From Candidatus Omnitrophota bacterium (lineage in GTDB: Bacteria > Omnitrophota > Gorgyraeia > Zapsychrales > Zapsychraceae): a DNA stretch of 64,000 bases. Below the pieces are notes generated by a model that saw only the letters and a list, made by a program, of their open reading frames with translations, was not told where the DNA came from and made no database searches. This document shows, piece after piece, positions 1 to 19,808 of this stretch (the first letter of the stretch is position 1; each line of letters opens with the position of its first letter). The position numbers were made by a program, and so were the translations under genes. The stretch lies in assembly GCA_020632515.1 (NCBI GenBank), contig JACKFK010000004.1:128068-192067 (forward strand), read 5' to 3'.

Positions 1-329
1 GATTTAAGTCGGTGTATTTACCTAAGGCGTTAGTGCATCATCAAATTCGACCGGAACAAATGAGTCAGCAGTGGCTTTATCAACGGGCATTTCGTTACGG
101 CAGAGCAGACACTTTTCACGAAATCCATCCGCATACTGCAATGTTTTTCGGGGCTCCGCGGTACATGTACCGCTTACTGTTGGAGTTTTTAGTGCTGCGC
201 TGGAAAGCAATCTTGGCAAAGAATGAAAGTGAAGCGTTTAATCTAATGATTAAATATTGGATGACAAAAGGGCGCATTTATCAATATCGTTGTCAGCCGA
301 AAAAAGTTAGAGATAAAGACGATGAATAG
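1..329 (+). CDS. C-terminal fragment of an ORF running off the left edge; function unassigned (possibly another EPS-cluster enzyme)
   Basis: Frame is open from position 3 to the stop at 327-329. The stop overlaps the next start (ATGAATAG), suggesting the same operon. No diagnostic motif recognised. Confidence 0.3.
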   Translation, partial: FKSVYLPKALVHHQIRPEQMSQQWLYQRAFRYGRADTFHEIHPHTAMFFGAPRYMYRLLLEFLVLRWKAILAKNESEAFNLMIKYWMTKGRIYQYRCQPKKVRDKDDE

Positions 330-3353: not shown

Positions 3354-4704
3354 GCTGTTTTATCAAAAATTGCTAAATCCTTTCTTTGAAAATATTCTAA
3401 AGAAACGACAGATGCTCAAATACAAGGCCTTTTTAGAAGAAAGTCAATGGTGGCCTAGAGAAAAACTCTTGGAATACCAATGGAATGAACTTACGAAATT
3501 ATTGCATCATTGTCATTATAATGTTCCGTATTGGAAGGAAAAATTTGACCAGTTGAATATTTCCTGGACCGATATCAAATCCTATGAGGATTTTTTAAAA
3601 TTACCGATTACAACAAAGGATGATATCCGAAAGCATAAAGAACGGATGCTCGCGCGAAATTATATAGGAAAAACCTGGAGTAAGCATACCGGAGGTTCCA
3701 CAGGAGAACCCATGGAGTTAGATTATACCCCAGAAAGTTATGACTGGCGGGTCGCAATCTCCAAACGCGGTTATGCCTGGACGGGGTGTGAAGATGGAAT
3801 GAAACAGTTTTATTTGTGGGGAGTTCCTTTGAAAAAACAATCAGCCATTAAGAGGTTGAAAGAAAATATTTATTATCGGATTCATCGTCAACGTTATTTT
3901 AATTGTTATGAATTTGACCATAAGGCCAAACAACGCTGTTTAAAAACGCTTAATGCGTATAAACCTGAAATTATTGTTGGCTATACAAATCCTTTATACG
4001 CATTAGCCAAATTTATCAGCGAAGAGGGTCGCTTAAATTATCAACCTAAAGCCGTAATCTCAGCGGCAGAAAAACTTCATCCTATTCAACGGGAAAAGAT
4101 TAAATCTGTTTTTAATTGCGATGTCTTTGATACTTATGGATGCCGGGAGTTTATGCTTATTGCAGCGGAAGATAAGGAACATGATGGAATGTATTTAAGT
4201 ATGGAAAACCTTTATGTGGAGATTATTAAAGATAATGGTCAACCAGCGCAGCCTGGCGAGAAAGGGCATTTAATTATTACGGATCTTCATAATTATGGTA
4301 TGCCATTTATCCGGTACCGTATCGGTGATATGGCGTTGGCTATGGAACAGACTCCAGCAAAATCTGGTCGTGGACTATTAAAAATTGCTGACGTGGTAGG
4401 GCGTTCACTGGATATGATAACGACGAAAGAGGGAAAGGAAATTCCAGGAGAATTCTTTATTCGAGTTATGAGGGATAAGCGCGGTATAGATAAGTTTCGG
4501 GTGATTCAGGAAAAAGAGGAAGAATTGATTGTGGAGATGATTAAGAATTCTTATTTTGATAATAAGCAGTTTCATGAAATTAAAGAAACAATAGGTCGTA
4601 TGGTAGGTCCTTCAATGCAGGTTGATTATCAGTTTGTCAATCAGTTGCCTTTAACGCAGACCGGAAAATTTCGTGTGACTGTATCAAAGATTCAGAGAGG
4701 GTAA
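3325..4704 (+). CDS. CapK / phenylacetate-CoA ligase (PaaK, F390-synthetase)-like adenylate-forming enzyme
   Basis: 'HTGGSTGEPMEL' AMP-binding-type motif, 'YGCREF', 'RYRIGD', C-terminal 'TGKFR'. This layout is typical of the CapK-like family found in capsule loci. An alternative GTG start at 3346 is possible. Confidence 0.65.
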   Translation: MEWEDARVYKLFYQKLLNPFFENILKKRQMLKYKAFLEESQWWPREKLLEYQWNELTKLLHHCHYNVPYWKEKFDQLNISWTDIKSYEDFLKLPITTKDDIRKHKERMLARNYIGKTWSKHTGGSTGEPMELDYTPESYDWRVAISKRGYAWTGCEDGMKQFYLWGVPLKKQSAIKRLKENIYYRIHRQRYFNCYEFDHKAKQRCLKTLNAYKPEIIVGYTNPLYALAKFISEEGRLNYQPKAVISAAEKLHPIQREKIKSVFNCDVFDTYGCREFMLIAAEDKEHDGMYLSMENLYVEIIKDNGQPAQPGEKGHLIITDLHNYGMPFIRYRIGDMALAMEQTPAKSGRGLLKIADVVGRSLDMITTKEGKEIPGEFFIRVMRDKRGIDKFRVIQEKEEELIVEMIKNSYFDNKQFHEIKETIGRMVGPSMQVDYQFVNQLPLTQTGKFRVTVSKIQRG

Positions 4705-4707
4705 AAA

Positions 4708-5805
4708 ATGAAAATTATACAAGTGGTTAGTTCTTTAGATTTTGGTGGATTGGAAAAAATGGTGATTCAATTAACGGAACGTTTAAATCAAACTGGTTCT
4801 GAGTGCAGTATTGTCTGTCTTGAAAAAGAAGGTGGTTTGGTTAATGAGGCGTTAAGAAAAAATATTCAAGTGGATGTTTTCTCGAAAAAAGATGGATTTG
4901 ACATGGACTTGATATGGAATTTAAAGAAGTATTTCCAACGAGAAGAAGCGGATATCGTTCATACTCATAATTTCGCGCCATTGATTTATGCAAGTACAGC
5001 TGCAAAATTAGCAGGGGTTCCTTGTATGAATACGCGCCATGGAAGGGCTGATAAAAAAGCTCCCTGGATATTTTGGGCGTTAAATAAAAAAATTGCTGCA
5101 GTATCTAATGATGCTAAAGAACAACTTTTGAAAAATAACAGGATTAAATCTGAAAAAGTGAAGGTGGTCTATAACGGAATTGATATACAGTCGATGCGGG
5201 CAGATTTGCAACCTAATGAAAAAGCACAGTTGCGACAATCGCTCGGAATAAAGGCGGATAGCTTTGTAATCGGAAATATAGGACGATTGGTGCGGGAAAA
5301 AGATCAAGCGACTTTATTAAAAGCGTTTCGTAAGATATCGCAGCGGACTAAGAATGTTGAATTGTTAATTGTGGGCGATGGACCGTTAAAATCCAATTTA
5401 CTTAAGCTAGCAAAGGAACTTGATATTCAAGGAAGTGTAAAGTTTGCTGGATTTCGTGAAGATATCGCGCAGATGTTACAGATTATGGATGTTTTTGTTT
5501 TATCGTCCATTATGGAAGGGATTTCTTTAACGGTATTAGAGGCCATGGCTGCTGGTTTGCCGGTGGTGGCAACGAAAGTTGGTGGGAATCCAGAAATTAT
5601 TAGTGAAGGTAAAACAGGTTTTTTGGTTCCGTTAGGTTATCCGGAAAGAATTGAATCAGCTGTCAAACGGATTATGGCTGATCCTCGGTTAGGACGAAGT
5701 TTAGGAGAGGCTGGACGCTTAAGGGTTCAAGAAAATTCTCAGTTGGAACATATGGTAAGCGTTTATCGAGAGATTTATGACGAAATCAAATCAGAAAAAG
5801 GATAA
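4708..5805 (+). CDS. Family 4 (GT-B) glycosyltransferase
   Basis: 'EGISLTVLEAMAAGLPVVATKVGGNPEIISEGKTGFLV' signature; N-terminal 'GGLEKMV'. Confidence 0.8.
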   Translation: MKIIQVVSSLDFGGLEKMVIQLTERLNQTGSECSIVCLEKEGGLVNEALRKNIQVDVFSKKDGFDMDLIWNLKKYFQREEADIVHTHNFAPLIYASTAAKLAGVPCMNTRHGRADKKAPWIFWALNKKIAAVSNDAKEQLLKNNRIKSEKVKVVYNGIDIQSMRADLQPNEKAQLRQSLGIKADSFVIGNIGRLVREKDQATLLKAFRKISQRTKNVELLIVGDGPLKSNLLKLAKELDIQGSVKFAGFREDIAQMLQIMDVFVLSSIMEGISLTVLEAMAAGLPVVATKVGGNPEIISEGKTGFLVPLGYPERIESAVKRIMADPRLGRSLGEAGRLRVQENSQLEHMVSVYREIYDEIKSEKG

Positions 5806-6976
5806 GCCAAAAGTTTTAATTTTTACTAATATTTTTCCTTCGGCGGAAAATCCAAATGTTGGATTTTATGTTTATGAACAAGTGCAGCGTTTACGGGCGG
5901 TGTACGACATAAAAATTATGATGGCAAAGCCATCAGGGGGAAATAAAAAGAAAGATAATTCTAAGGCTAGTGTAAAAGTTTTTGAAGGTATCGAGATTTT
6001 TGAGCCGCAGTATGTTTCATTACCAAAAATTGGTGTATTTTTTAACGGTTATTCGTATTATCGTGCGATAGAAAAAATTGTTGAATTAATTTATAAAGAA
6101 TTTCCCTTTGTCTTAATTATCGCCTATTGGACCTATCCTGATGGATATGCGGCTGTAAAGATTGCGAAAAAATTTCAAGTACCGGTGATTTTACGACCAC
6201 GGGGATCAGATATCAATGTTTATGCAGATAATCCGGTATTAAGATTCTTATTAAAGAGGCCGTTAAAGAAAGCATACAAGATCATTCCTGTAAGCAATCA
6301 TTTGAAAGAGCGTGTTTTACGGTTAGGTATTAATCAGCATAAGATTTGTTCCATTCTTAACGGGATTAATGCGAAAGACTTCTTTGTTATGGATAAGAAT
6401 AAGTGTCGACAAAATTTGGATTTACCTTTAGATCATAAATTAGTTTTATTTGTCGGTAATTTTATAGCAATTAAAGGGATTGAATATTTTATTGAAGCGA
6501 TACGGGTTTTGGATCAGCCTTCGCAGCAAAATTTAAGCTTTATTTTCTTAGGATCAGGGCCTTTAGCTGATAAACTACAAAAGATAGCGCGGGAACTTAA
6601 ATTTATTTCGATTCGTATAATCGGAGATATTGCGCATAATCAGTTACGTGTTTGGATGAATGCAAGTGATTTACTTTGTCTGCCGAGCTTGCACGAAGGC
6701 TGTCCGAATGTAGTGATTGAAAGTCTGGCCTGTGGGTTGCCAGTTGTCGCCTCAAATGTTGGGGGAATCCCTGAGTTAATTAACAATGATGAATTAGGAA
6801 TTTTGGTACCAGCCAAAGATGAACGTTCTTTAGCTGATGCGATTGAAAAAGGATTGATTAAAAAATGGAATCAAGATTATTTGCTTAACCGTGTAAAAAA
6901 CTTTAGCTGGGATAATGTGGTTGAGAAATTACAGAAGGAATGTGATTTAGCCATTTCTTCTGCGAAGAAGGATTGA
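5777..6976 (+). CDS. Family 4 (GT-B) glycosyltransferase
   Basis: 'HEGCPNVVIESLACGLPVVASNVGGIPELINNDELGILV' signature; overlaps the previous gene by 29 nt. Confidence 0.7.
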   Translation: MTKSNQKKDKPKVLIFTNIFPSAENPNVGFYVYEQVQRLRAVYDIKIMMAKPSGGNKKKDNSKASVKVFEGIEIFEPQYVSLPKIGVFFNGYSYYRAIEKIVELIYKEFPFVLIIAYWTYPDGYAAVKIAKKFQVPVILRPRGSDINVYADNPVLRFLLKRPLKKAYKIIPVSNHLKERVLRLGINQHKICSILNGINAKDFFVMDKNKCRQNLDLPLDHKLVLFVGNFIAIKGIEYFIEAIRVLDQPSQQNLSFIFLGSGPLADKLQKIARELKFISIRIIGDIAHNQLRVWMNASDLLCLPSLHEGCPNVVIESLACGLPVVASNVGGIPELINNDELGILVPAKDERSLADAIEKGLIKKWNQDYLLNRVKNFSWDNVVEKLQKECDLAISSAKKD

Positions 6977-6978
6977 AA

Positions 6979-9078
6979 ATGAGTAAAAAAACGATATTAG
7001 TTACAGGGGCTGCTGGTTTTGTTGGTCGGCATTTGCTTAAACATCTTCAGAGTCGGGATTATGATATTGTAGCTATGGTAAGAGAGAATACGGACGTAGC
7101 TTTTCTTGAGCAAATGGGGATTCGGTATATAAAAGCGGATTTACGCGTCAAGGAAAGTTTATATCCTTTATTCGATAAAGTGGATCATGTCGTTCATTTA
7201 GCGACGACCATGAAAGGACCATGGGAAGAATATGAAGAATCTACTGTTAACGGTACACGACGTTTGCTTGAAATCACCAAAGAAAAAGGAATTCAAGGTT
7301 TTACCTTTATTAGTTCTATCGCGGTTTATGATGTTTTTTCTGCTGATAACGGGGTTTTGACAGAGGGTTCTAAAATTAATGACAATAATTTATCGATGTA
7401 TGAAAAATCAAAAATTCAAGCCGAAGCTCAGGTTCAATCTTTTATTCATGACGGGTTGGCGGGTGTAATTTTAAGATGCGGGGTTATTTATGGTCCTGGC
7501 GGAGCCCTTTTTCCTCCACGGCTTGGGTTCGCCTCGGGGAAAAATAAATATTTAACGATCGGCAGTGGGCTTAATCGGATTCCGTTTGTTTACGTTGAGA
7601 ATTTAGTGGAAGCCATTCGACTAACGATAGAAAATCCATCGAGTCATGGTGAAACATTCAACATTGTTGACGATCAAGACATCGCGCAGTTGGAATATTT
7701 GAATATGGTTAAGACCCATGTCAATCCATCGCTTAAAGTTTGCAAGATACCGTATGGTGTTTGGTTAACATTTAGTCAATGTGTTGGGGTTTTATTAAAA
7801 CTTCTTAAACGGCCGTCACCGTTACGCAAAGTTTATCTTTATCAATGCCGGCAACAGCTAACGTATTCAAATCGGAAGGCTAAAAATAAACTGGGATGGA
7901 AACCATCACAGAATAGCCAATCCGCAATGCTAACAACGATGAAGTGGTTTAAGGATCAACAGACACATCATCGGATTGTTGATCCTAAGTTGGCCCGAAA
8001 AACAGTTCTTTTAAAGAAACCGCAGAATGTCGCATTGATTGGTTGTGGAGTTATCGCGAAAACGCATTTACAGATTTTAAACCGTATTGACGGTGTTAAC
8101 GTGGTTGGTTTATTTGATCAGAACATTCAGGCTGCGGAAGCATTAGTGAAGGAATTCGGGAGGGGGAAAGCGTATGCGTCATTGGATGATCTTTTGAATA
8201 ATGAAAAGATTGATGTGGTGCATATTTTAACGCCACCACAATCCCGTAAAGAAATCGCGCAGAAATGCGCGCAAAAAGGGTGTCATCTTTTTTTAGAAAA
8301 ACCCATGGCGATGGATAGTCATGATGCGAAGGCTATTTTGGCCGCGGCGAACGAATTTAATGTTAAGCTTTGCGTTGGTCATAATCATTTATTTGATCCT
8401 CCAATGATTAAAGCTCGTCAGCTAATAATTGATGGAGAAGTTGGAAAAATTCTTTCGGTTGAAAGCTGGTATGGATTTAACCTTGGCGCGAATTTAACTT
8501 CACGCTATATGGTGCCAGGCGCGGAGAACCATTGGTCGATGCAATTGCCAGGCCAATTGTATCAGAATTTAATTTCACATCCATTATCCGTGTTGAGTGA
8601 CTGTATGGGACGTCCGCAAGAGATTTATGCTCAGACGGTTTCTGCTAATGTGGTCAAGTGCATGAAAAGTGATGAGTTAAAAGTTATGTTAAAGTCTGAC
8701 CATACTGTCGGCAATTTAACAGTATCATTAGCTGTTAATCCGCGGTATCAATTATTGAATATTTATGGAACGAATATGTGTTTGTATGTTGATTTTCTCA
8801 ATAAAACCATGATTAAACACGCGACACCTAAAGGCATTCCCAAAGCAATTTCCCGAGCACTGATGAGTATTGTCGCAGGGTGGGTCTTAATTACATCGAC
8901 ACTGCGCAATGTATTTAAAGTTTTAACAAAGACTTTTACCTACTTTGATGGTACAGAAATTTTAATTAAGGAATTTTATCGACGATTAGAAGACGGTGGG
9001 CCAATGCCGGTTAGTGGTGAGGAAGGTGTTGAGTCGATGGAAATTATGGATGAGATTTGGAGTCAGATTAATATTTGA
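6979..9078 (+). CDS. Fusion protein: N-terminal NAD-dependent sugar epimerase/dehydratase (extended SDR) + C-terminal Gfo/Idh/MocA-family oxidoreductase
   Basis: N-terminal half: 'ILVTGAAGFVGRHL' Rossmann motif and 'YEKSK' YxxxK catalytic motif. C-terminal half, from about aa 345: 'VALIGCGVIAKTHL' second Rossmann motif and 'LFLEKPMA' (the EKP motif of Gfo/Idh/MocA). ATG 6979 is preferred over TTG 6973. Confidence 0.7.
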   Translation: MSKKTILVTGAAGFVGRHLLKHLQSRDYDIVAMVRENTDVAFLEQMGIRYIKADLRVKESLYPLFDKVDHVVHLATTMKGPWEEYEESTVNGTRRLLEITKEKGIQGFTFISSIAVYDVFSADNGVLTEGSKINDNNLSMYEKSKIQAEAQVQSFIHDGLAGVILRCGVIYGPGGALFPPRLGFASGKNKYLTIGSGLNRIPFVYVENLVEAIRLTIENPSSHGETFNIVDDQDIAQLEYLNMVKTHVNPSLKVCKIPYGVWLTFSQCVGVLLKLLKRPSPLRKVYLYQCRQQLTYSNRKAKNKLGWKPSQNSQSAMLTTMKWFKDQQTHHRIVDPKLARKTVLLKKPQNVALIGCGVIAKTHLQILNRIDGVNVVGLFDQNIQAAEALVKEFGRGKAYASLDDLLNNEKIDVVHILTPPQSRKEIAQKCAQKGCHLFLEKPMAMDSHDAKAILAAANEFNVKLCVGHNHLFDPPMIKARQLIIDGEVGKILSVESWYGFNLGANLTSRYMVPGAENHWSMQLPGQLYQNLISHPLSVLSDCMGRPQEIYAQTVSANVVKCMKSDELKVMLKSDHTVGNLTVSLAVNPRYQLLNIYGTNMCLYVDFLNKTMIKHATPKGIPKAISRALMSIVAGWVLITSTLRNVFKVLTKTFTYFDGTEILIKEFYRRLEDGGPMPVSGEEGVESMEIMDEIWSQINI

Positions 9079-9084
9079 AAGGTT

Positions 9085-10275
9085 TTGGTTTTAAGGATTA
9101 TTAAATTGAATATTTTATATCACCATCGCACACATGGAACAGGGGCTGAAGGCGTACACATTGCGTATATAATAAAAGGTCTTCGCGATTTAGGTCATAA
9201 GGTTGATGTGATTTCACCGAACAATATTGATCCGACTCTGACTGCGGGGAACAATCCGTTTGCAGCCGACGGTAAACATAAAAAAAACCGATTTTTACTG
9301 CTAAGCCGTAAATTGCCGCAGATTTTTTTTGAATGGATGGAGATAGGATATAACTTTGTTCTCTTTTTTAAATTATGGCATCAATTGAAAAAAGAATCAT
9401 ATCAATTGATTTATGAACGTCAGGCTTTTTTTTGTTTTGTCGGTGCGTTAAAGGCTAAAAAGTGTAATGTGCCTTTTATTGTGGAAGTTAATGAAGTGGC
9501 AGGGGAGAAAAGAGTAAGAAAGCAGATTTGTGTTGGCTTGGCAAAACGAATCGAGAAATATGTCTTTTCAAAAGCTGACGCGATTATTGTTGTTTCGGAA
9601 TTTCTGAAGAAGAAGATTATTGAATTGGGAATACCGTCAGATAAAATTCATGTAATTCCCAACGGGGTAGATGAGCAGTTATTTAATCCGCAAATTAACG
9701 CAAAGTCAGTTCGTGAAAAATATAATATAAGTGAAGACATGGTGGTTATCGGATTTATCGGTTGGTTCGTACAGTGGCATCAGTTAGACCGTTTGATTGA
9801 TGTATTTGCGCAATTAGCATCAACAAGAGATATCAGGCTGATGTTAGTTGGTGATGGAGATTTAAAAGAGTCGTTAGCTCAAGTAGCAAAAGAAAAAGGG
9901 ATGCTTGATAAATTGATTTTTTCTGGAGCTATAAAATATCAATCAATCCCGGCATATATTCAAGCGATGGATATTTGTGTGATTCCAGCGTCGAATGAGT
10001 ATCGCTCGCCAATTAAATTATTCGAATATATGGCCATGGCTAAGCCCACTGTAGCGCCGCGTTTTCAAGCTATTGAATCTGTTGTGGGTGAAAATGAATA
10101 TGGACTGTTATTTAACGGGGAAGAAGCAGAGGATTTAAAAAATAAACTGGAAGAATTAATCGAAAATAAACAAAGGCGGCAAGAGCTGGGTATGAAGGCG
10201 CGTCAGCATATTGAACAGAATTTTCTTTGGAGGCATAATGCTGAAAAAGTTTTGAATATCTATAAAAATATTTGA
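9085..10275 (+). CDS. Family 4 (GT-B) glycosyltransferase
   Basis: 'HRTHGTGAEGVHI' N-terminus and 'SPIKLFEYMAMAKPTVAP' EX7E-like region. TTG start at 9085 (no nearby ATG). Confidence 0.7.
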   Translation: MVLRIIKLNILYHHRTHGTGAEGVHIAYIIKGLRDLGHKVDVISPNNIDPTLTAGNNPFAADGKHKKNRFLLLSRKLPQIFFEWMEIGYNFVLFFKLWHQLKKESYQLIYERQAFFCFVGALKAKKCNVPFIVEVNEVAGEKRVRKQICVGLAKRIEKYVFSKADAIIVVSEFLKKKIIELGIPSDKIHVIPNGVDEQLFNPQINAKSVREKYNISEDMVVIGFIGWFVQWHQLDRLIDVFAQLASTRDIRLMLVGDGDLKESLAQVAKEKGMLDKLIFSGAIKYQSIPAYIQAMDICVIPASNEYRSPIKLFEYMAMAKPTVAPRFQAIESVVGENEYGLLFNGEEAEDLKNKLEELIENKQRRQELGMKARQHIEQNFLWRHNAEKVLNIYKNI

Positions 10276-10317
10276 TGATGAAGGGTATGAGTAATAAGTA
10301 AGGAGAAAGCCGATATT

Positions 10318-10833
10318 ATGAGAATTTATCATGATCTAAAATTTAAAAGTCAGATGTTTTATGGTAAAAGCAGTTTTATTAGTATTTTGCGCGTGCTTTT
10401 CAGCGATGGAAGCTTAGCCATTGTTTTATATCGAATCACACAATTTCTTTTTAAATATCGGTTGGGATTTGTCGGGTATTTTTTTCAACTGCTGAATAAA
10501 TATCTTAATGGCTGTGTTATCGGCGGTAAAGCGGAATTTGATACAGGTTTTGTGCTGATGCATCCGCATGGCGTGATCATAAATAGTGAAGTTAAAGGCG
10601 GAAAGAATATTGTAATTGAAAGCGGTGTGGTGATTGGAGCTGCGCGTAATGGTCTGCCAGTGGAAGCGCCGTATTTAAAGAATAATATTTTCATCGGCAG
10701 CGGGGCTAAGATTCTCGGGGGTATTTCTATCGGTAACCATGTTAATATCGGCGCCAACGCGGTTGTCTTGCAAAACGTTCCTGATAATAGCACTGCAGTT
10801 GGAGTGCCGGCAAGGATTATTGAAAAGAAATAA
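10318..10833 (+). CDS. Hexapeptide-repeat (LbH) O/N-acetyltransferase, serine-acetyltransferase-like
   Basis: Tandem hexapeptide repeats 'IGSGAKILGGISIGNHVNIGANAVV'; 171 aa, the size and shape of EPS-locus CysE-like acetyltransferases. Confidence 0.7.
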   Translation: MRIYHDLKFKSQMFYGKSSFISILRVLFSDGSLAIVLYRITQFLFKYRLGFVGYFFQLLNKYLNGCVIGGKAEFDTGFVLMHPHGVIINSEVKGGKNIVIESGVVIGAARNGLPVEAPYLKNNIFIGSGAKILGGISIGNHVNIGANAVVLQNVPDNSTAVGVPARIIEKK

Positions 10834-11997
10834 ATGAATATGCCTATAGAAAACTTTATAAAATTTGTATTTTGGTTAGCGTTTTTTTTCGTAGGCTACG
10901 CGTATATTTTATATCCATTTTTATTAATTGTTATTGATAACCTGGCGCCCAAGAAAGATTTTCAACAAAGCGATGAAGCTTTATCAGTTGCTATTCTGGT
11001 AGCTGCCCATAATGAAGAAAAAGTTATTGCGAATAAAATTAAAAATTGTTTAGCGTTAGATTATCCGATGGAATTTTTACAAATTGTGATCGCCTCAGAT
11101 GGATCAGATGACAAGACTAATGAAATTGTGCGAAAACATCAAAGTAAAAATGTGATCCTGATGGATTATCCTCAGCGTCAAGGAAAAATTAATGTGCTGA
11201 ATCAAACGATTCCAAATATTCAAAGCGAGATTGTGGTCTTTAGTGATGCTAACACGCTTTTTCATCATGACGCGGTTAAAAATCTGGTAAGGCATTTTGC
11301 CGATAAAAGAATTGGGTGTGTTTGCGGTGGATTGCATTTTATCAATGCGGATGGGAGTCATACTGCGGATTTAGAAGGGTTTTATTGGCGATATGAGACA
11401 TTTATGAAAAATATCGAAGGTCGACGGGGATCATTGCTAGGTGCTAATGGCGGAATTTACGCTATTCGAAAAACACTTTATGAGCCGTGTCTAGAAGATA
11501 CCATTATCGATGATTTTATGATCCCGATGAAAATCTTAGAAAAGGGATTTAAAGTTATTTACGACCCAAGTGCTAGCGCAAAAGAAGAATCTGCACATAA
11601 AATTGTTCAGGAAAAACAACGACGTATTCGTATTGGTGCCGGAGATTTTCAAGCCTTAACCAGGTTGTCGCATATGCTTAATCCTGTTTTAGGGTTCTCG
11701 GCTTTGGCTTTTTGGTCACATAAGGTTTTACGATGGTTGGCGCCATTCTTTTTGATTACGATATTTTTGACAAATATCCTTTTATTAAAAGATCCTATTT
11801 ACATTTTTATTTTTCTAGGACAATGTCTTTTTTATTTGTCAGCGTTTTTTGGACAACTGCTTAGCTGGGCGGGTATCAAAGTAAAGTTTTTTAATTTATG
11901 CTATTACTTTGTATCAATGAATTTGGCGTTATTATTAGGATTTGTTCGGTTTATTTCTGGTGAACAAGCCGCGACATGGAATAGAACGGAACGATAA
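10834..11997 (+). CDS. Membrane-embedded family 2 glycosyltransferase with synthase-like architecture
   Basis: N-terminal TM helix; 'AILVAAHNEE', 'ASDGSDD', 'FSDAN' (DxD position); 'QEKQRRIRIG' at the position of the QxxRW motif; 3-4 C-terminal TM helices. The layout resembles PgaC/IcaA/BcsA-type synthases. Confidence 0.7.
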   Translation: MNMPIENFIKFVFWLAFFFVGYAYILYPFLLIVIDNLAPKKDFQQSDEALSVAILVAAHNEEKVIANKIKNCLALDYPMEFLQIVIASDGSDDKTNEIVRKHQSKNVILMDYPQRQGKINVLNQTIPNIQSEIVVFSDANTLFHHDAVKNLVRHFADKRIGCVCGGLHFINADGSHTADLEGFYWRYETFMKNIEGRRGSLLGANGGIYAIRKTLYEPCLEDTIIDDFMIPMKILEKGFKVIYDPSASAKEESAHKIVQEKQRRIRIGAGDFQALTRLSHMLNPVLGFSALAFWSHKVLRWLAPFFLITIFLTNILLLKDPIYIFIFLGQCLFYLSAFFGQLLSWAGIKVKFFNLCYYFVSMNLALLLGFVRFISGEQAATWNRTER

Positions 11998-11998
11998 A

Positions 11999-13093
11999 AT
12001 GGCGAAGAATATAAATCGATGGATTGGCAGTTATCTTAAGCAGGAATTAAAGAAAGTTTTTAATACAAAGCGACATCACAAAAAAGTTCATGTTATGTTT
12101 TCGTGTGTGGATCATTATGAGCCCGACTGGCATGACGCTGATGAGAAAACGCAGCTGGAACGTGTACAGCGTTGGGTTGAAAAATATCCTGCATTAGCAA
12201 AAAAGCATAAAGATGCGGATGGATGTCATCCACGGCATACTTTCTTTTATCCTGCGGAAGTTTATAATTCTGTGCATTTAGATTTATTGGCCAAGATTTG
12301 TAAACAAGGTTTTGCGGAAGTAGAAGTTCATTTGCATCATGATAATGATACGGAAGAAACATTAAGAATAAAATTAGAGAAAGCAAAGAAAGATTTTAGT
12401 CAGCATGGATTGTTAAGTCGGCGGAAACTATCAGGACAGATTCGCTTTGGATTTATTCATGGAAATTGGGCGCTTAATAATTCTCGTAAAGACGGCTGTT
12501 GGTGTGGTGTTAATGACGAAGCGCGTATTTTAGCGGATTGCGGATGCTACGCGGATTTTACTTATCCTTCAGCGCCGAGTGAAACACAGCCGAAGATTAT
12601 TAATCGGATTTATTACACGCGGTCGCATCCTTTGAAAGCAAAAACGCATAATTATGGTGTTGACGTAAAAACGGGCCGGCATACTAAAGCGCATTTGCTT
12701 ATGGTGCAGGGGCCGCTAACATTTAATTGGACAAAACGTAAAAAAGGAATTTTTCCCAGGATTGAAAATGGCGATATCACCGGGGCTAATCCCCCCACTA
12801 AAGATCGTGTTGATTTATGGATCAAACAGTATATTAGTGTAAAAGGAAAACCTGATTGGATATTTGTCAAAGTGTACACGCATGGTGCTCCGGAGAAGAA
12901 CGCGCATACCTTATTAGGAAATCCTATGGATGAAATGTTTTCTTATTTGGAAGAAAAATATAATGACGGCATGAATTTTGCTCTTCATTATGTCAGCGCG
13001 CGTGAGATGTTTAATATTATTAAAGCTGCTGAAGCCGGAGAACAAGGCCTGCCCGGGGAATATCGGGATTATATATTAGAAAAAAATATTTAG
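11999..13093 (+). CDS. Conserved hypothetical; His/Asp-rich, possibly a divergent metal-dependent polysaccharide deacetylase/esterase
   Basis: Motifs 'SCVDHYEPDW', 'VEVHLHHDND', 'FIHGNWALNN'. Starts 1 nt after the GT2 stop (start moved from 11942 to ATG 11999). The functional call is based on motif shape and context only. Confidence 0.35.
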   Translation: MAKNINRWIGSYLKQELKKVFNTKRHHKKVHVMFSCVDHYEPDWHDADEKTQLERVQRWVEKYPALAKKHKDADGCHPRHTFFYPAEVYNSVHLDLLAKICKQGFAEVEVHLHHDNDTEETLRIKLEKAKKDFSQHGLLSRRKLSGQIRFGFIHGNWALNNSRKDGCWCGVNDEARILADCGCYADFTYPSAPSETQPKIINRIYYTRSHPLKAKTHNYGVDVKTGRHTKAHLLMVQGPLTFNWTKRKKGIFPRIENGDITGANPPTKDRVDLWIKQYISVKGKPDWIFVKVYTHGAPEKNAHTLLGNPMDEMFSYLEEKYNDGMNFALHYVSAREMFNIIKAAEAGEQGLPGEYRDYILEKNI

Positions 13094-13116
13094 AGAACAA
13101 AGGATAAATTAACTAT

Positions 13117-14223
13117 ATGGACAGAAAAATTGATTTTGATGTGCCAAATATATCAAATGTTGAAAAAGAGTATATTTTAAAGGCATTGGATAGCCGGTTT
13201 GTTTCAACAATCGGACCACATTTAAATGAATTTGAAGAGAAATTTACGCGTTATTTAAAATGTAAAAAATCAGCAGCCACGCAAAGCGGAACCGCGGCTT
13301 TGCATATTTCTCTTTATGAATTAGGAATCGGCCCGGGGGATGAGGTGATTGTGCCGGTTACAACATTTATCGCTTCAATTAATCCATTGCTTTATGTCGG
13401 CGCAAAGCCGGTTTTTGTGGATGTTGATGAAGAAACGTGGAATATGTTGCCGGATCAAATTGAGCAAGCTATTACAGCGAAAACCAAGGCGATTATTCCA
13501 GTGCATCTTTATGGGAATCCTTGTGACATGAACGCGATTATGAAGATCGCAAAAAAACATAATTTATTCGTGATTGAAGACGCTACAGAAAGTTTAGGCG
13601 CGCATATTGACGGCCGGTTTACTGGTACTTTTGGGGATATGGGGTGTTTTAGCTTCAGCGGCAATAAAACGATCACTTCCGGAGACGGCGGCATGGTGGT
13701 TGGCAACAATCATAAGCAGATGGAACATATTAAATATTTGATTAATCAAGCGAAAGACGCGACAGGAGGATATTTTCATTCAGAAGTAGGTTTTAAATAT
13801 GGGATGTCTAATTTGGAAGCCGCATTAGGTTTGGCACAATTCAGCCGGCTGCAAGAATTTTTGGATAAGAAAAAAGAATTTAGTGAAATTTATAAAGAAG
13901 AGTTAAGCGACGTTGCCGGTGTCAAGTTTCAAAAACTTTATGATAAGGCTGTCAGTTCCTGGTGGTTGACGTGTATTACAGTTGATCGGGCAAATCTCCA
14001 GCTTACAGATATCCAGGAGGCGCTGATGAAAAAAGGAATTCCAACAAAACGTTTTTTTGTGCCGATTGTGGAATTTCCACCGTATAAGAATCATCAAAAG
14101 GAAGGTGCTTTTGATAACGCGTATAAAATTTATCATCGAGGGTTATGTCTGCCAAGTACAACCGTGAATTCCCTTGATGATACGCGGTATATTGGCAGAA
14201 CCATTAAAGAATTATTGACATAG
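13117..14223 (+). CDS. DegT/DnrJ/EryC1/StrS-family PLP-dependent sugar aminotransferase
   Basis: 'SGTAALHISL', 'VIEDATESLGA', 'SFSGNKTITSGDGG' (PLP-lysine region); 368 aa. Confidence 0.85.
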   Translation: MDRKIDFDVPNISNVEKEYILKALDSRFVSTIGPHLNEFEEKFTRYLKCKKSAATQSGTAALHISLYELGIGPGDEVIVPVTTFIASINPLLYVGAKPVFVDVDEETWNMLPDQIEQAITAKTKAIIPVHLYGNPCDMNAIMKIAKKHNLFVIEDATESLGAHIDGRFTGTFGDMGCFSFSGNKTITSGDGGMVVGNNHKQMEHIKYLINQAKDATGGYFHSEVGFKYGMSNLEAALGLAQFSRLQEFLDKKKEFSEIYKEELSDVAGVKFQKLYDKAVSSWWLTCITVDRANLQLTDIQEALMKKGIPTKRFFVPIVEFPPYKNHQKEGAFDNAYKIYHRGLCLPSTTVNSLDDTRYIGRTIKELLT

Positions 14224-14260
14224 ATCATCAGTTATCGGTGTTTTGTGTGGAAAGGTATTT

Positions 14261-16858
14261 ATGACGAAATTACAGCAATATTTGATATTGGCAGCGGTGA
14301 TCATTATTGGTTTTATGTTTTTAAATAAAAATGAATCTTCTCTAAAATCAAAACAAGCTAAGAAAATAAGCGAAGAAGTTGTTGTTCTGAGCAATTTTGA
14401 AGATCCAAAAGTGTGGGGTATTTCACCGGAACACGGGTTTTCAATCCGGGTAACGAAAAAACATAGCACACAGGGAAAGTATTCATTAGAGGTGAAATTT
14501 CCGCAAAAAGATTATCCTAGTATCAATACAAAGAAGTTGGAGCAAAATTGGGGAGATTATGAATATTTGTTATTGGACGTTTTTAATCCACAGGATGAGT
14601 CCATTGATTTTCGTATTCGCTTGGACGATTTATCAAAAAAACGTGTCAACATTCCTTATCGGCTTGAGCCTGGCGCCAATGTCATTAAAATAGCCAAATC
14701 TCAGATCGCGGCTAAAATCAACGCGGAAAAAATCCGTTTTGTTGTTTTTTATCTTAATGATCCACGTAAGCGTCTTACATTGTATTTTGATAATCTTCGT
14801 CTGGAGAAATCAGGATTAATTCAGAATATTGAAACGAAATTAAAGAATAAAGATACTGTTCAAACACAAGCCTCAGCGCAACCATTGCCACTGCGAAAAG
14901 CTGTTGACCTGCCATCAAAACCTGTTCTCACACAAGGCGAATTAAAAGTAGCCTTGGCTAAATTAAAGGATGAAAAAGAAAAGGTTGTTTTTATATCTTC
15001 TGGAATCCCATTTGCGCGCGGACAGTTGAAAGCTATTAACGACTTTGTCATAACCGATACGAATGGTCAAGAGATTCCTATCGCTGCGAAGGTTTTGGCT
15101 CGCTGGCCGCAAGATCAATCAATTCGTTCTGTCTTGGTGCAGTTTCAATATCCGATTGAGGCAATTTACGAATATGTTTTATTTCGCTGGGGAGTGGCAA
15201 GAACGACAAAAGATTTAGACATTGTGGAGCCGCGTTGGCAATATCCCGAGGGCGTTGTCGTGATGCCGGCGGAATGGCTGTGTTCGTCGGAAGTGACAGG
15301 GGAACAAGTTCCGTTAGGGATTGGCTATTTTTATGATAAATATGATAAGAAAATATTAAATAATTTTGAAAAAGTAAAAAATAAACCATGGACTGGGAAG
15401 TTAACTGTTGACGGCTTTTATTCGACCCCACATGTGTTTTATCAGTTATACGCCCGCTCAGGTGAATTAAATTATTTCCTTGCGGCGAGAAAAGAGCTGC
15501 TTCATTATCGGGATACGCAACTCATTTTGGATGGAGAAAACCGTGGTCGTAGCACACAAGGGCCTAAAGGGCGGTATGTTTATGTTCAGGCTATGATGGA
15601 TGATTATTTATTAACGGGAGATCCTAAATCATTGGAGGTGGCCAGATACATGGCTGAATACTTAAAGAATTATTTTCCGCCGGAAAAAGCTTTTTATCCC
15701 AAAGGCGCTGAGTATTTTTGGACCGAACGAACCGCGGCATTTCCATTTTTAGGTATTATAACTTACTATGAATTGACGCAGGATAAAGAATATTTAAAAT
15801 TAGCCGACGAGTATATGGAAAACCTCTACAAGATGCAGATGCAGTATCCGGAACGCGGTGGATTTATTCATAACCTTTACGCGCATGATCCAGAAGAAGG
15901 CGCGCGCAAAGATGAGTATGGAGGTTCTCCATTTATGACGGGATTGTTATTAGAGTCGATCATTAAATATCATAAAATTACAAAAAGTGAAAAAGCAGCT
16001 GATTCAATCTTTCGAGTGGTGGATTGGCTGATTAATGAGGGCTTGGTGGCGGATGGGGATTCTTTTAAATATATGACCGCGGATAAATATCTTAATACTG
16101 ACGGTGATCCGGATGTAAATCTTCTCGTTGTTCATGGATTGGGATACGCGTATCGTCTTAGCGGTTATCAAAATGAAGAGTATATAAAAGTCGGACAGAA
16201 GGTTTTTAACCGCGGGGTAAAAGATGGATTTGTTGCCAAACGAAAACATTTTAATCAGAATTTCCGTAACAGCGGGCATTATCTGGCGTATGTTGCGGAT
16301 GGTCTGGAACAGCTTCAAGTTTTAAAACCATTAGCTGAGCAGGACGAGGAGAGAACGATTGAGAATGTGTTATTCTTTGAAGGTTTTGAATATTCTTTAG
16401 GGAAGTTTAAGGGAATGGGCGACGCAGCGCTTGACCTTGATAAGGACGATGTCTATTTAAACGGGAATTCTTTTCACATTAAAAGTAAATTTCAGAAATC
16501 CACTCTGTCTGCTGGTTTTCTTCTGGAAAATTGGAATATGGACGATTTCTCCCGAATCAATTTTGCTTATAAAATTCCATCGGAAACACCGGTAGGGATG
16601 CTGGTCATCACCCAATTTGGCGATAGTATTTGTATCGGCGGGACTTCCCGGTATCAATGCGGGCGTACTCAAGCAAAAGAGGAATTTAAGCTGATCGATG
16701 ATGGTCAGTGGCACGAAGCGAATTTTGATGTTAGACTTGCTGTGCGTAGTGTCTTGCCGCAATTAAAATCATTGACTGGGTTTCAATATTTTACCAATGG
16801 TAACGCGACGGAACATGATGAATTTTGGATTGATGATTTCAAAATAAGACGAGAATAA
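14261..16858 (+). CDS. Large N-terminally anchored extracytoplasmic protein of unknown function: two beta-sandwich (CBM-like) modules flank a helical-repeat core. Candidate glycan-processing enzyme.
   Basis: Signal-anchor 'LILAAVIIIGFMF'. N- and C-terminal segments have the pattern of jelly-roll binding modules ('FE..W....S.G..SL.V.F', terminal 'FWIDDFKI'). The central 350-700 aa is rich in paired helices ('WTERTAAFPFLG', 'GGSPFMTGLLLESI'). ATG 14261 is preferred to TTG 14243. Confidence 0.45.
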   Translation: MTKLQQYLILAAVIIIGFMFLNKNESSLKSKQAKKISEEVVVLSNFEDPKVWGISPEHGFSIRVTKKHSTQGKYSLEVKFPQKDYPSINTKKLEQNWGDYEYLLLDVFNPQDESIDFRIRLDDLSKKRVNIPYRLEPGANVIKIAKSQIAAKINAEKIRFVVFYLNDPRKRLTLYFDNLRLEKSGLIQNIETKLKNKDTVQTQASAQPLPLRKAVDLPSKPVLTQGELKVALAKLKDEKEKVVFISSGIPFARGQLKAINDFVITDTNGQEIPIAAKVLARWPQDQSIRSVLVQFQYPIEAIYEYVLFRWGVARTTKDLDIVEPRWQYPEGVVVMPAEWLCSSEVTGEQVPLGIGYFYDKYDKKILNNFEKVKNKPWTGKLTVDGFYSTPHVFYQLYARSGELNYFLAARKELLHYRDTQLILDGENRGRSTQGPKGRYVYVQAMMDDYLLTGDPKSLEVARYMAEYLKNYFPPEKAFYPKGAEYFWTERTAAFPFLGIITYYELTQDKEYLKLADEYMENLYKMQMQYPERGGFIHNLYAHDPEEGARKDEYGGSPFMTGLLLESIIKYHKITKSEKAADSIFRVVDWLINEGLVADGDSFKYMTADKYLNTDGDPDVNLLVVHGLGYAYRLSGYQNEEYIKVGQKVFNRGVKDGFVAKRKHFNQNFRNSGHYLAYVADGLEQLQVLKPLAEQDEERTIENVLFFEGFEYSLGKFKGMGDAALDLDKDDVYLNGNSFHIKSKFQKSTLSAGFLLENWNMDDFSRINFAYKIPSETPVGMLVITQFGDSICIGGTSRYQCGRTQAKEEFKLIDDGQWHEANFDVRLAVRSVLPQLKSLTGFQYFTNGNATEHDEFWIDDFKIRRE

Positions 16859-16860
16859 CA

Positions 16861-17685
16861 ATGGCATTTATCACGAAAATAAAAGATTTTAAAAAGGAAA
16901 TCGCTGCGTTTTTAATTATGCTTGCCGCGTATTTCCCTACACTTATCTGGATGTGGGATCGTTGGTGGTCAAAGGATTCCTATTATACGCATGGTATTTT
17001 GGTGCCAATTGTTAGCGGATTTTTGGTTTGGCAATTGAAGGATGATTTAGCCAAAATTAAACGCAAAGAATCGGCCTGGGCGATCAGATTAATTGTTATC
17101 GGTTTAGGGGTCCATTTATTCAGTTCTCTTTTCAGGGTTTATTTTTCTTCGGGGTTCTCAATGATTCTCGTGCTGATGGGGTTGATTTTATTTTTCTTCG
17201 GTGGAGAATTTCTGAAGAGAATTATTTTTCCTGTATTATTCTTGCTCTTTATGATTCCTATTCCTCTAGTAGCCATTGCCACAATTAGTTTTAAACTTAA
17301 AATTCTTGCCGCTGAAATCGCAACTGTTGTTTTAAATAATATGCGGATTCCCGCGTTGCGTGAAGGTAGCGTGATTCGTATGCGCGACGCGTATGTGATT
17401 GTCGACGATGTCTGCAGTGGGTTGCGGTCATTAATCGCGTTAACGGCATTAGGCAGTGTCTTTGCCTATTGGATGAAAGATAAAGCTTATAAACGAATAT
17501 TGCTGTTTTTATCCACAATACCTATCGCTATTATTACTAATGTTTGCCGGGTAATATTGTTATGCTGTATCAGTGAAATTTGGGGGCCGAAATACGCGAC
17601 CGGATTTATTCACGATCTTTCCGGATTTATGGTATTTGCCTTAGCGTTTATTTTATTGTTTGTTGTAGGAAAGTTAATTGAATGA
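16861..17685 (+). CDS. Exosortase (EpsH/Xrt family) transpeptidase
   Basis: About 8 TM helices. Carries the family's three signature sites: 'VDDVCSGLRSL' (Cys), 'ITNVCRVILL' (Arg) and 'FIHDLSGF' (His). N-terminal 'WW...SYYTHG'. Confidence 0.85.
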   Translation: MAFITKIKDFKKEIAAFLIMLAAYFPTLIWMWDRWWSKDSYYTHGILVPIVSGFLVWQLKDDLAKIKRKESAWAIRLIVIGLGVHLFSSLFRVYFSSGFSMILVLMGLILFFFGGEFLKRIIFPVLFLLFMIPIPLVAIATISFKLKILAAEIATVVLNNMRIPALREGSVIRMRDAYVIVDDVCSGLRSLIALTALGSVFAYWMKDKAYKRILLFLSTIPIAIITNVCRVILLCCISEIWGPKYATGFIHDLSGFMVFALAFILLFVVGKLIE

Positions 17686-18483: not shown

Positions 18484-18604
18484 TCCGGAAATAGAGCAGA
18501 GAAGGATATGCTTTTTTTGTAAAAGAAAAATATTTTTAAGTATTTGATAATAAAAGAATTACGAAAAAATTAAAAAGAAAGATAATAGAGTGGTTTTCAA
18601 GATT

Positions 18605-18620
18605 TGGCACGAATTTTGCT
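18605..18620 (+). promoter_or_regulatory. Sigma-54 (RpoN) -24/-12 promoter: TGGCAC-gaatt-TTGCT
   Basis: 11/11 match to the TGGCAC-N5-TTGCW consensus with correct GG-N10-GC spacing. Lies at the 3' end of a 314-bp intergenic gap, just upstream of ATG 18635. Confidence 0.55.
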
Positions 18621-18634
18621 CTAAGAGTCTATAT

Positions 18635-19492
18635 ATGTTAAAACCGAGTTTAAAAAATCAGAAATCAGCAAAAATTATCCTAAGTTCTTTTATTGTAGGG
18701 TTTTATACGCTTTGTGTGGCGTCCGCGTGGGCAACAGTAACCTTTGTGAAGCCTCAAGATGTTACCCATCAAGTGGAAATTGGAAAGAAGTCAGATATTC
18801 CGATGAATGTATCAATGGAAACCAAGGCTTTCGCGCCAGAACCAACGTCTTTAGCACTTTTTGGGGGGGGATTTATTGGCATGATCATGAGTTTTATTCG
18901 TAAAACTTATGCGATTATTAAAAGGCTGTTTGATTTTGTAGCGAGTTTAATTGGCTTTATTATTTTATTGCCTCTTTTTGCGGCTGTAACGTTATTAGTA
19001 AAGTTAACTTCCAAAGGGCCGATTCTTTATTCTCAAATAAGGGTAGGAAAAGATGGCAGTCTATTTCGCATCTTTAAATTTCGTACTATGAAGGTGGACG
19101 CGGAAAAAGAAACCGGACCAGTTTGGGCGGCGGAAAATGATAATCGGCTGACTTCAATCGGAAAGTTTTTGCGAAAAACACATTTGGATGAGATTCCACA
19201 ATTATTTAATGTCCTTAAAGGGGAAATGAGTATTGTTGGGCCTAGACCAGAGCGGCCTGTTTTTGTGGATAAATTTAAAGCTACAATTCCAAGTTATGAA
19301 AAGCGTTTAATGGTTAAGCCTGGAATTACAGGGTTAGCGCAAGTATGGCACAGCTATGATGAAACGATTGAAGATGTAAAGAAGAAATTAAAGTATGATC
19401 TGCTTTATATTAAGAAATTTGGAATTTGGGCAGATTTAGGGATTTTCTTAAGAACATTTCGCGTTGTTGTTACAGGTGAAGGCGCACGTTAA
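18635..19492 (+). CDS. Phosphoglycosyl (undecaprenyl-phosphate sugar) transferase of the small PglC/WbaP-C-terminal type, with an N-terminal extension that is a signal peptide plus a PEP-CTERM-like sorting motif
   Basis: PGT core: 'KRLFDFVASLIGFIILLPLF', 'KGPILYSQIRVGKDG', 'FKFRTM', 'LDEIPQLFNVLKGEMSIVGPRPERP'. The extension has 'IILSSFIVGFYTLCVASAWA' (signal-peptide-like), then 'PEPTSLALFGGGFIGMIMSFIRK' at nt 18836-18904. The start is ambiguous: GTG 18590 (track) or ATG 18635. Confidence 0.8.
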   Translation: MLKPSLKNQKSAKIILSSFIVGFYTLCVASAWATVTFVKPQDVTHQVEIGKKSDIPMNVSMETKAFAPEPTSLALFGGGFIGMIMSFIRKTYAIIKRLFDFVASLIGFIILLPLFAAVTLLVKLTSKGPILYSQIRVGKDGSLFRIFKFRTMKVDAEKETGPVWAAENDNRLTSIGKFLRKTHLDEIPQLFNVLKGEMSIVGPRPERPVFVDKFKATIPSYEKRLMVKPGITGLAQVWHSYDETIEDVKKKLKYDLLYIKKFGIWADLGIFLRTFRVVVTGEGAR

Positions 19493-19538: not shown

Positions 19539-19808
19539 ATGGTTAAGAAAATTAAAGATTACGCATATAATGCGATGCTTATCGCACTCGTTCCATTGCT
19601 AACAGGTTGTAATGGTGGCGGAGGTGGTTCTACTTCAGGACTAGGCGGTTTATTTGCTTCTTTCGGAGGCGGAGACGGTTCTGGTGGACCTGGCGTTTTA
19701 GGGTCAGCCGGCGATCTTGCCAGCATCAATAACCCTGAGCCAGCTAGTTTATTGCTTATGGGTAGTGGTATGGCCGCATTAGCTTATTACAAAAATAGAA
19801 AAAAATAA
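19539..19808 (+). CDS. 89-aa glycine-rich PEP-CTERM protein with a lipoprotein signal peptide
   Basis: Strong SD 'AAAGGAGG' at 19522-19529. Lipobox 'LLTGC' (Cys24). Gly/Ser-rich core 'NGGGGGSTSGLGGLFASFGGGDGSGGPG'. C-terminal 'NPEPASLLLMGSGMAALAYYKNRKK' is a canonical PEP-CTERM signal. Start moved from the track's 19464. Confidence 0.75.
   Translation: MVKKIKDYAYNAMLIALVPLLTGCNGGGGGSTSGLGGLFASFGGGDGSGGPGVLGSAGDLASINNPEPASLLLMGSGMAALAYYKNRKK

Follow-up and report, generated by a model that had tools for sequence, protein, structure and literature searches.

Positions 18635 to 19492 of the 64,000-nucleotide stretch of Candidatus Omnitrophota DNA analysed here (contig JACKFK010000004.1; the whole stretch is called the window below) hold a forward-strand gene with one uninterrupted frame, from the ATG at 18635 to the TAA at 19490-19492, which codes for a protein of 285 residues. 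Its translation gives, in this order, a predicted signal peptide, a linker, a PEP-CTERM sorting signal and a monotopic phosphoglycosyl transferase (PGT), and we refer to gene and product as PEP-PGT. An earlier note on this DNA had proposed that a PEP-CTERM cassette is fused in frame before a small PGT at this place; every element that it claimed lies where it had been put, and the structural claim is upheld by the translation, by profile hidden Markov models (HMMs) and by the orthologues.

The predicted signal peptide, MLKPSLKNQKSAKIILSSFIVGFYTLCVASAWA (residues 1-33, 18635-18733), has a Lys-rich n-region, an h-region and an AWA site, with predicted cleavage by signal peptidase I between AWA and the following T. 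A lipoprotein reading of the N-terminal Cys, with TLC followed by V, was considered and rejected, since the residue at -1 is unfit for a lipobox and the Cys is not conserved. The predicted periplasmic linker is a hydrophilic segment of 34 aa (residues 34-67, 18734-18835), and it is followed by the PEP-CTERM-type signal PEPTSLALFGGGFIGMIMSFIRK (residues 68-90, 18836-18904), made of PEP, a Gly-rich transmembrane helix and a basic cluster. The PEP itself (residues 68-70) directly abuts the hydrophobic helix TSLALFGGGFIGMIMSFI, and the basic residues after the helix are R89 and K90, then K96 and R97. The signal is internal and not C-terminal, with 195 residues, the PGT, following the basic cluster. 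The junction and the re-entrant membrane helix of the PGT (KRLFD...LLP, with K96-R97 and L112-P113) occupy 18905-19009, and the catalytic domain, with the motifs FKFRTM and DEIPQL...GEMSIVGPRPE, extends from 19010 to 19489, its Asp185-Glu186 dyad being encoded at 19187-19192.

The enzyme part was recognized by the Pfam model Bac_transf (PF02397) over residues 96-279 with 226.7 bits (1.9e-67). The TIGR03025 model (EPS_sugtrans) gave 310.8 bits against a cut-off of 295.55, with only model positions 208-445 matched; TIGR03013 (EpsB_2), matched only at positions 240-443, gave 274.9 bits and missed its cut-off of 393.35, and on the WbaP model PEP-PGT reached 197 bits against 403. Searches against solved chains returned WbaP (8t53, 1.5e-34) and PglC (8e37, 9.5e-29), the latter aligned from PglC residue 9 on. 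D185 and E186 are invariant in the homologues and align with 'lDElPQ' of WbaP. The re-entrant helix of PglC depends on a Lys7-Arg8 dyad and on a break at Ser23-Pro24, where Ser or a branched-chain residue may precede the Pro, which makes Leu-Pro an accepted variant (PMC6133551). The spacing from K96-R97 to L112-P113 is 17 residues, the same as from Lys7 to Pro24 in PglC, and the residue before the re-entrant Pro is Ser in most homologues and Leu in the PEP-PGT of the window. Judged by these profiles, PEP-PGT belongs to the monotopic PGT superfamily and to TIGR03025, but not to TIGR03013.

Scoring with the PEP-CTERM and Bac_transf models had been proposed in the earlier note, and the thresholds were reached: PF07589 (cut-off 20.7) gave 20.8 bits for the whole of PEP-PGT and 22.5 bits for its N-terminal 97 aa, and TIGR02595 (cut-off 16) gave 17.7 bits for the N-terminal piece. 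Since these curated scores are marginal, a custom HMM was built on 65 unique, canonical PEP-CTERM signals, all C-terminal, from related loci and searched against 2,596 six-frame open reading frames (ORFs) of those loci and of the window. The internal signal of the window reached 27.1 bits, close to the median of 27.8 bits for 39 PGT-internal signals, and stood about 21 bits above the best ORF without a PEP-CTERM signal (5.9 bits), a gap that places the PEP-PGT motif far beyond chance. The PEP-PGT signal has all PEP-CTERM defining features that were tested except the terminal position.

A homologue search covering 5.8 billion proteins returned more than 120 PEP-PGT homologues, mostly of about 282 aa, with 59-71% identity at about 98% coverage. 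Those with a named organism are all from Candidatus Omnitrophota, and many carry precomputed matches to both PF07589 and PF02397. In 120 homologues the motif is PEP in 116 and SEP in 3, the remaining one being a 203-aa call that is discussed below. In an alignment of the window protein with 119 homologues (n=120), E69, P70 and Y92 are kept in 120/120 sequences, A67 in 119/120 and P68 in 117/120, while F76, G77, G79, G82, M83, F87 and R89 are each kept in 112-119/120; thus the P-E-P, the Gly-rich helix and the basic cluster, whose retention the earlier note had suggested checking, are all conserved. Conservation, expressed as the mean frequency of the commonest residue, is 0.78 in the PEP-CTERM segment, 0.64 in the re-entrant helix and 0.83 in the catalytic domain, against 0.44 in the signal-peptide core (h and c regions) and 0.34 in the linker. 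The distance from PEP to the stop is 218 codons in every orthologue from 26 species genomes.

The predicted signal-peptidase site is also well kept: 116/120 sequences have Ala at -1, 104/120 have Trp at -2 and 99/120 have Ala at -3. Within the linker, conservation is 0.56 over residues 34-43 and 0.34 over residues 44-64. The predicted mature N-terminus (residues 34-43, 18734-18763) is semi-conserved in the clade as T-[VL]-S-F-[VI]-K-P-x-[DE], as is an 'IP' dipeptide in the middle of the linker; the other linker residues are variable. The n-region and the segment after the helix each carry a mean net charge of +3.9 and the linker one of +0.1, a pattern that fits the positive-inside rule for an N-in signal, a periplasmic linker and a cytoplasmic enzyme. 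The topology proposed in the earlier note is self-consistent.

The exosortase locus and its promoter

PEP-PGT lies near the end of a single-strand exopolysaccharide (EPS) locus that extends from about 0.3 to 19.8 kb of the window and in which EPS genes are followed by an exosortase gene, an EpsI gene, PEP-PGT and the gene of a small PEP-CTERM protein, all on the forward strand. The exosortase that had been reported at 16861-17685 is indeed there, two genes upstream of PEP-PGT and with the EpsI gene in between. It has 274 aa, matches PF09721 (4e-68) and contains the Cys motif DDVCSGLRSL. It scores 179.4 bits on TIGR02602 (cut-off 105.55) and 69.8 on the TIGR04178 signature (cut-off 23), and with 190.3 bits on TIGR03109 (XrtA) it misses the cut-off of 208; on these scores it is a generic exosortase, near XrtA and XrtD and under the cut-offs of both. 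The EpsI-family exosortase partner at 17682-18320 matches TIGR02914 (98.9 bits, cut-off 42.8) and PF11984 (3.5e-33). Directly downstream of PEP-PGT, at 19539-19808, is the gene of a small Gly-rich canonical PEP-CTERM protein of 89 aa (PF07589 22.2 bits, TIGR02595 19.2 bits), whose signal (LLTGC) resembles that of a lipoprotein, whose body consists almost purely of Gly and Ser and which ends in NNPEPASLLLMGSGMAALAYYKNRKK. The signals of this protein and of PEP-PGT are the only two PEP-CTERM signals in the window.

The order exosortase, EpsI, PEP-PGT and then one to six canonical PEP-CTERM genes recurs in each of the homologous contigs inspected (L001, L003, L004/L005 and L037), and it was found in 24 of the 26 species-representative genomes of Omnitrophota. 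The two exceptions are L014, which has no exosortase in its 6-kb upstream flank, and L025, whose contig is too short. A metagenome scan for further PEP-less members yielded only generic related PGTs of at most 50% identity, which served as a control; 47 of their 80 loci had a PGT ORF that passed the filters: 0/47 carried the signal, and 0/47 had an exosortase or EpsI within flanks of at most 10 kb, as judged by a single-query exosortase tblastn that may miss distant exosortases.

Upstream of PEP-PGT we found a sigma-54 (-24/-12) promoter element, TTGGCACGAATTTTGCT, at 18604-18620 on the forward strand, with 14 nt between its end and the ATG; it contains the sole exact TGGCAC-N5-TTGC match of the window. 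The position of the element makes the ATG at 18635 the likely start, because the alternative GTG at 18590 is located upstream of it. The same element precedes the orthologous PEP-PGT gene in L001 (~7934-7950), L003 (~7933-7950) and L004 (~7939-7956). Downstream in L001 and L004 are genes for a histidine kinase, a sigma-54 activator and a TPR protein, which match the PrsK/PrsR/PrsT set described in proteobacterial PEP-CTERM systems, where one PEP-CTERM gene is RpoN-dependent (PMC9850573). The sigma-54 element and the Prs-like genes therefore suggest that PEP-PGT is regulated like an exosortase substrate, and we infer that the promoter is used and that PEP-PGT is probably co-transcribed with the gene of the 89-aa PEP-CTERM protein. 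Two further features were observed around this promoter in the orthologous loci. L003 has an additional TTGGCAC just upstream of the element, and an inverted-repeat-like 'cctgttcaaca...tgttga' lies about 170 bp upstream of the promoter in L001 (~7765-7785) and L003 (~7765-7790), which might serve a PrsR-type activator as an enhancer; no obvious equivalent of it was seen in the window.

The EPS biosynthesis genes upstream of the exosortase (322-16858) include GT2 and GT4 glycosyltransferases, an epimerase/oxidoreductase, a hexapeptide (acetyltransferase-like) transferase, a DegT aminotransferase and a protein of 871 aa. No second PGT was found among the window ORFs scanned against Pfam. The 871-aa protein (14243-16858), encoded directly upstream of the exosortase, has weak GH127 and PcRGLX-like (glycoside hydrolase/lyase type) matches. 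Counterparts of 50-57% identity are encoded at the corresponding place in L007, L028 and L031, and the protein may be an EPS-modifying or EPS-degrading enzyme of the system. At the place of the 89-aa protein, orthologous loci usually have a protein of about 300 aa and a small protein of the 'NPEP...AMAY.KN' type. In many loci (L001 10480-12240, L004 10480-12257, L035 9589-11365, L041 5600-7322 and L042 13021-15308), among them those of the divergent large fusions described below, the PEP-PGT and PEP-CTERM genes are followed by a gene pair for a protein of about 290 aa without a Pfam match and a TPR protein; the pair is absent at the equivalent place in the window. Farther away in the window, at 54297-55484, is a response regulator with an EAL domain (cyclic di-GMP phosphodiesterase type), which could bear on the control of biofilm or EPS. 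Several of the species genomes with the Omnitrophota-type locus (L008, L018, L022-L025, L027 and L030) are titled 'uncultured Planctomycetales bacterium', which is probably a matter of labelling among metagenome-assembled genomes of the PVC group.

Divergent relatives with large N-terminal domains

An N-terminal profile of 126 positions was searched against 1.84 billion cluster representatives, and the junction of PEP, helix, basic cluster and KRxxD was found also in far more distant PGTs whose N-terminus bears a large secreted domain of about 200 aa. Among these are P0140 (458 aa), P0146 (485 aa), P0161 (480 aa), P0175 (428 aa) and P0157 (372 aa, with a PKD domain), and three of these five pass the PF07589 cut-off with 22.9 to 26.4 bits. 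A second search added about 20 more clusters of 420-490 aa, one of them labelled Elusimicrobiota. Short matches of the N-terminal profile (P0121-P0135 and others) were considered as stand-alone small PEP-CTERM genes and discarded, as they are really contig-end fragments or frameshifted reads. An Arg-rich insert of 15-30 aa (NRRRR...DRR) was observed between the first beta-hairpin and F.IYKFRTM in P0140, P0146, P0161, P0175, P0143 and related proteins; the clade of the window has no such insert.

The N-terminal 218 residues of P0146 align over 100% of their length, with 48-62% identity, to nine stand-alone proteins of 232-277 aa, and the domain has 36% identity to one further protein, of 280 aa. 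Of six sequences of this stand-alone type that were read, five end within a few residues of the basic cluster, and one stand-alone protein is annotated as 'PEP-CTERM sorting domain-containing protein [Candidatus Omnitrophica bacterium]'. Therefore, such fusions join genuine exosortase cargo to a PGT. In L035, the internal signal of the PGT, IPEPGTLLLFGTGLLGMIG, is almost identical to the C-terminal signals IPEPGSMLLFGTGLIGLIG of two PEP-CTERM genes directly upstream. PEP-CTERM signals are known to resemble each other within one genome (PMC1569441), and the likeness in L035 fits this. The N-terminal domain of P0140, compared with the neighbouring PEP-CTERM proteins, showed no homology outside the signal peptide and the sorting signal.

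In a rough neighbour-joining tree of the catalytic domains, all PEP-bearing PGTs form one clade. Interspersed in it are members that have the helix with a decayed motif (PEA, PEV, LQPAG or none). Since the helix is kept without PEP in some lineages, the helix alone suffices as an anchor, and as PEP is dispensable for anchoring, something else must select for it where it is retained. The contigs of the PEP-less relatives are too short to decide whether their loci contain an exosortase: none is present on the 3.6 kb of L039, and L040 has 1.3 kb.

Proposed role of the signal and alternative explanations

Our preferred explanation, which we hold as probable with moderate confidence, is that PEP-PGT is a client of the exosortase, that its membrane anchor is a genuine PEP-CTERM signal and that the priming of EPS is thereby coupled to protein sorting. 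The link to the exosortase is strengthened by the synteny in 24 of 26 genomes and by the fusions with PEP-CTERM cargo of the stand-alone type. In this model the sigma-54 promoter would transcribe PEP-PGT together with the downstream PEP-CTERM gene, and the signal peptide would direct Sec insertion and be removed after AWA. The PEP-CTERM helix would act as a stop-transfer sequence in an N-out/C-in orientation, leaving the basic cluster, the re-entrant helix and the catalytic domain at the cytoplasmic face. The insertion, the cleavage and the orientation are predicted from sequence rules. The PEP would be located at the periplasmic face of the membrane, as in exosortase substrates, and be recognized by the exosortase/EpsI pair. 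The exosortase would then most likely process the protein at PEP, so that the N-terminal segment is lost, a 34-aa peptide here and a cargo of about 200 aa in the divergent relatives, and the PGT would remain on the leaving-group helix. Recruitment alone, with the protein left uncut, would act in largely the same way, and in both cases the priming of undecaprenyl phosphate would be tied in space and number to exosortase-dependent sorting.

Processing at PEP seems the likelier of the two because the large fusions carry domains that in other proteins are ordinary cleaved cargo and because A-PEP is conserved with the same strictness as in substrates. In the clade of the window this 'cargo' is reduced to a 34-aa segment of low conservation, and selection would therefore keep the relation between PGT and exosortase, as recruitment or processing-dependent control, and not the delivery of a domain.

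Several observations weigh against this explanation. The curated PEP-CTERM models place PEP-PGT only marginally at threshold, and TIGR02595 gave 15.5 bits for the whole protein, under its cut-off. The PGT-internal signals have a flavour of their own (RAPEP...GM..SFxRRTY), and a comparison between PGT signals and canonical signals in the Omnitrophota clade detected no same-locus co-variation (identity 0.416 within a locus against 0.405 across loci, p = 0.70), so exosortase recognition is neither supported nor excluded by that test. The leader from the sigma-54 promoter would be about 4 nt in the window against 45-50 nt in the orthologues. For the large fusions L041 and L042, whose flanking DNA covers 4 kb and 10 kb on the upstream side and 10 kb on the downstream side, no exosortase was found. 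The AlphaFold2 model of PEP-PGT, computed from a 30-sequence alignment, is mediocre (pLDDT 66) and uninformative on a complex with the exosortase; in it the linker comes out disordered, and one long helix takes in both the PEP helix and the re-entrant helix.

Some of these observations would be accommodated by an inherited anchor without any role for the exosortase, in which an old fusion of a PEP-CTERM protein with a PGT has left a helix that only anchors or oligomerises the enzyme and a PEP that is structural at the membrane interface. The absence of co-variation, the loss of most of the N-terminal 'cargo' in the clade of the window, the relatives that retain the helix without PEP and the lack of an exosortase in the flanking DNA of L041 and L042 all agree with it. 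However, P68, E69 and P70 are nearly invariant at about 60% overall identity, the signal is nearly as constrained as the active-site domain, the adjacency of exosortase and EpsI has been kept in 24 of 26 species, and the PEP-less lineages themselves argue that a retained PEP is selected for something other than anchoring. We therefore consider the inherited anchor unlikely.

A second alternative arises from the helix codons, where FGGG is encoded by a G8 homopolymer (18863-18870). No run of G or C in the window exceeds it, and chance alone would yield about 0.3 such runs. The Logan assembly SRR17907852 (L043), an independent assembly of the same organism, is 100% identical to the window over 400 nt except that it has G7 in place of G8. 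In the G7 form the gene is split into an 82-aa ORF that ends PEPTSLALFGGDLLA (L043 331-579) and an ordinary small PGT of 203 aa (L043 576-1187; calls P0135 and P0002), with the TGA of the former overlapping the Met83 ATG as ATGA. The difference could be a homopolymer sequencing error, or it could be real slippage or phase variation that toggles between a fused and a plain enzyme. The earlier note had named a stop or frameshift near 18905 as an event that would separate a small PEP-CTERM gene from the PGT. One assembly does split the gene in this region, yet the upstream product of the G7 form is devoid of most of the helix, hence is not a separate small PEP-CTERM gene, and family-wide colinearity shows that the fused form is the conserved one.

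It is conceivable, then, that the working PGT is the 203-aa enzyme that starts at Met83, made by internal initiation or by a -1 slip in G8, next to a separate short secreted peptide. Met83 is kept in 115/120 sequences, 203 aa is the canonical length of a PglC-type enzyme, and the ATGA overlap of the G7 assembly is typical of translational coupling. Against this, all other homologues are in frame and free of stops, and several large fusions (P0146, P0157 and P0161) have Leu or Ser in place of Met83. The G tract is not conserved in the family, L010 alone sharing it, and the Gly codons before Met83, of which GGC is the commonest, have no Shine-Dalgarno-like bias, which together argue against a mechanism at the level of the family and let the fusion stand. 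Given also that G7 is perhaps a plain sequencing error and that its upstream product would not be a PEP-CTERM protein, the two-product explanation appears very improbable to us.

An artefact of assembly or annotation, in which a small PEP-CTERM gene and a PGT gene would be run together through an overlooked stop or frameshift, could appeal to the homopolymer in the junction region and to the one differing assembly, but it is effectively refuted by more than 116 independent homologues from many samples and by 26 species genomes with the same uninterrupted frame, the constant 218 codons from PEP to stop and a frame that is conserved at the protein level through the helix.

Relation to known systems and significance

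Exosortases were defined by genomics in 2006. How they act on their substrates, and why they sit in EPS loci, has to our knowledge not yet been shown biochemically. The locus described here shares with the PEP-CTERM/exosortase systems of the EpsH or XrtA type (PMC1569441) a tripartite signal that follows a (here predicted) N-terminal signal peptide, an EPS locus with exosortase and EpsI, adjoining canonical PEP-CTERM genes, a sigma-54-type control and, in orthologous loci, nearby genes like prsK, prsR and prsT. In the founding paper of 2006, by Haft et al., the PEP-CTERM domain was C-terminal 'virtually without exception' (PMC1569441). Unlike the substrates known from these systems, PEP-PGT has an internal signal with its own consensus, which is followed by a cytoplasmic enzyme of 195 aa, and unlike XrtA systems, the window has an exosortase that at 190 bits scores under the XrtA cut-off of 208.

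With the small monotopic PGTs (PglC; 8e37, 8g1n) PEP-PGT has in common the Bac_transf domain, the re-entrant determinants with the same spacing and the Asp-Glu dyad. PglC begins about 8 residues before its Lys-Arg dyad and has both termini in the cytoplasm, whereas PEP-PGT has about 87 extra N-terminal residues that are predicted to supply a signal peptide, a periplasmic segment and a true spanning helix. The large PGTs WbaP and WcaJ (8t53) and EpsB2 (TIGR03013) have the same catalytic domain, and PEP-PGT reaches TIGR03025; however, they carry a four-helix N-terminal membrane domain and a cytoplasmic domain, and no signal peptide or PEP motif. Proteobacterial PEP-CTERM/XrtA EPS loci use EpsB2 as their priming enzyme and encode it beside prsK and prsR (PMC9850573).

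The sortase A/LPXTG system offers an analogy. There, a Cys transpeptidase cuts a C-terminal tripartite signal and the cargo goes to lipid II, a precursor linked to undecaprenyl pyrophosphate. The folds of sortase and exosortase are unrelated. In PEP-PGT, by this analogy, the signal is joined to the very enzyme that makes the undecaprenyl-linked precursor; we know of no comparable fusion of signal and enzyme among sortase substrates. It could be imagined that the exosortase moves PEP-CTERM cargo onto the undecaprenyl-pyrophosphate-linked glycan primed by PEP-PGT, with the PGT tethered through its own PEP-CTERM helix, an extension of the model that we regard as rather doubtful. If it were true, the fusion would be a Rosetta stone for the exosortase acceptor, similar to the pair of sortase and lipid II, the synthesis of the acceptor and the transfer of cargo would be channelled, and cleavage of the PGT's own signal would place the first cargo, be it peptide or domain, on the growing polymer.

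A search of the literature, in which many subscription papers were outside coverage, found no description of a fusion between PEP-CTERM and PGT. This agrees, within that incomplete coverage, with the earlier note, which knew of none. The pair of domains is visible in precomputed Pfam tables, and the fusion has therefore been unremarked rather than invisible.

The presence of a sorting signal and an EPS priming enzyme in one polypeptide amounts to an evolutionary statement that both processes interact, and PEP-PGT with its exosortase and EpsI makes a defined and testable pair, built around a small membrane enzyme with an assayable activity. The strict rule that PEP-CTERM signals are C-terminal is broken by this family, which is relevant to annotation pipelines that demand a terminal position. 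For the monotopic PGT superfamily, the predicted succession of signal peptide, periplasmic segment or domain, spanning helix and re-entrant helix adds a membrane architecture beside the small, large and bifunctional forms. Its hosts are Omnitrophota, most of which have not been cultivated and about whose surface biology little is known.

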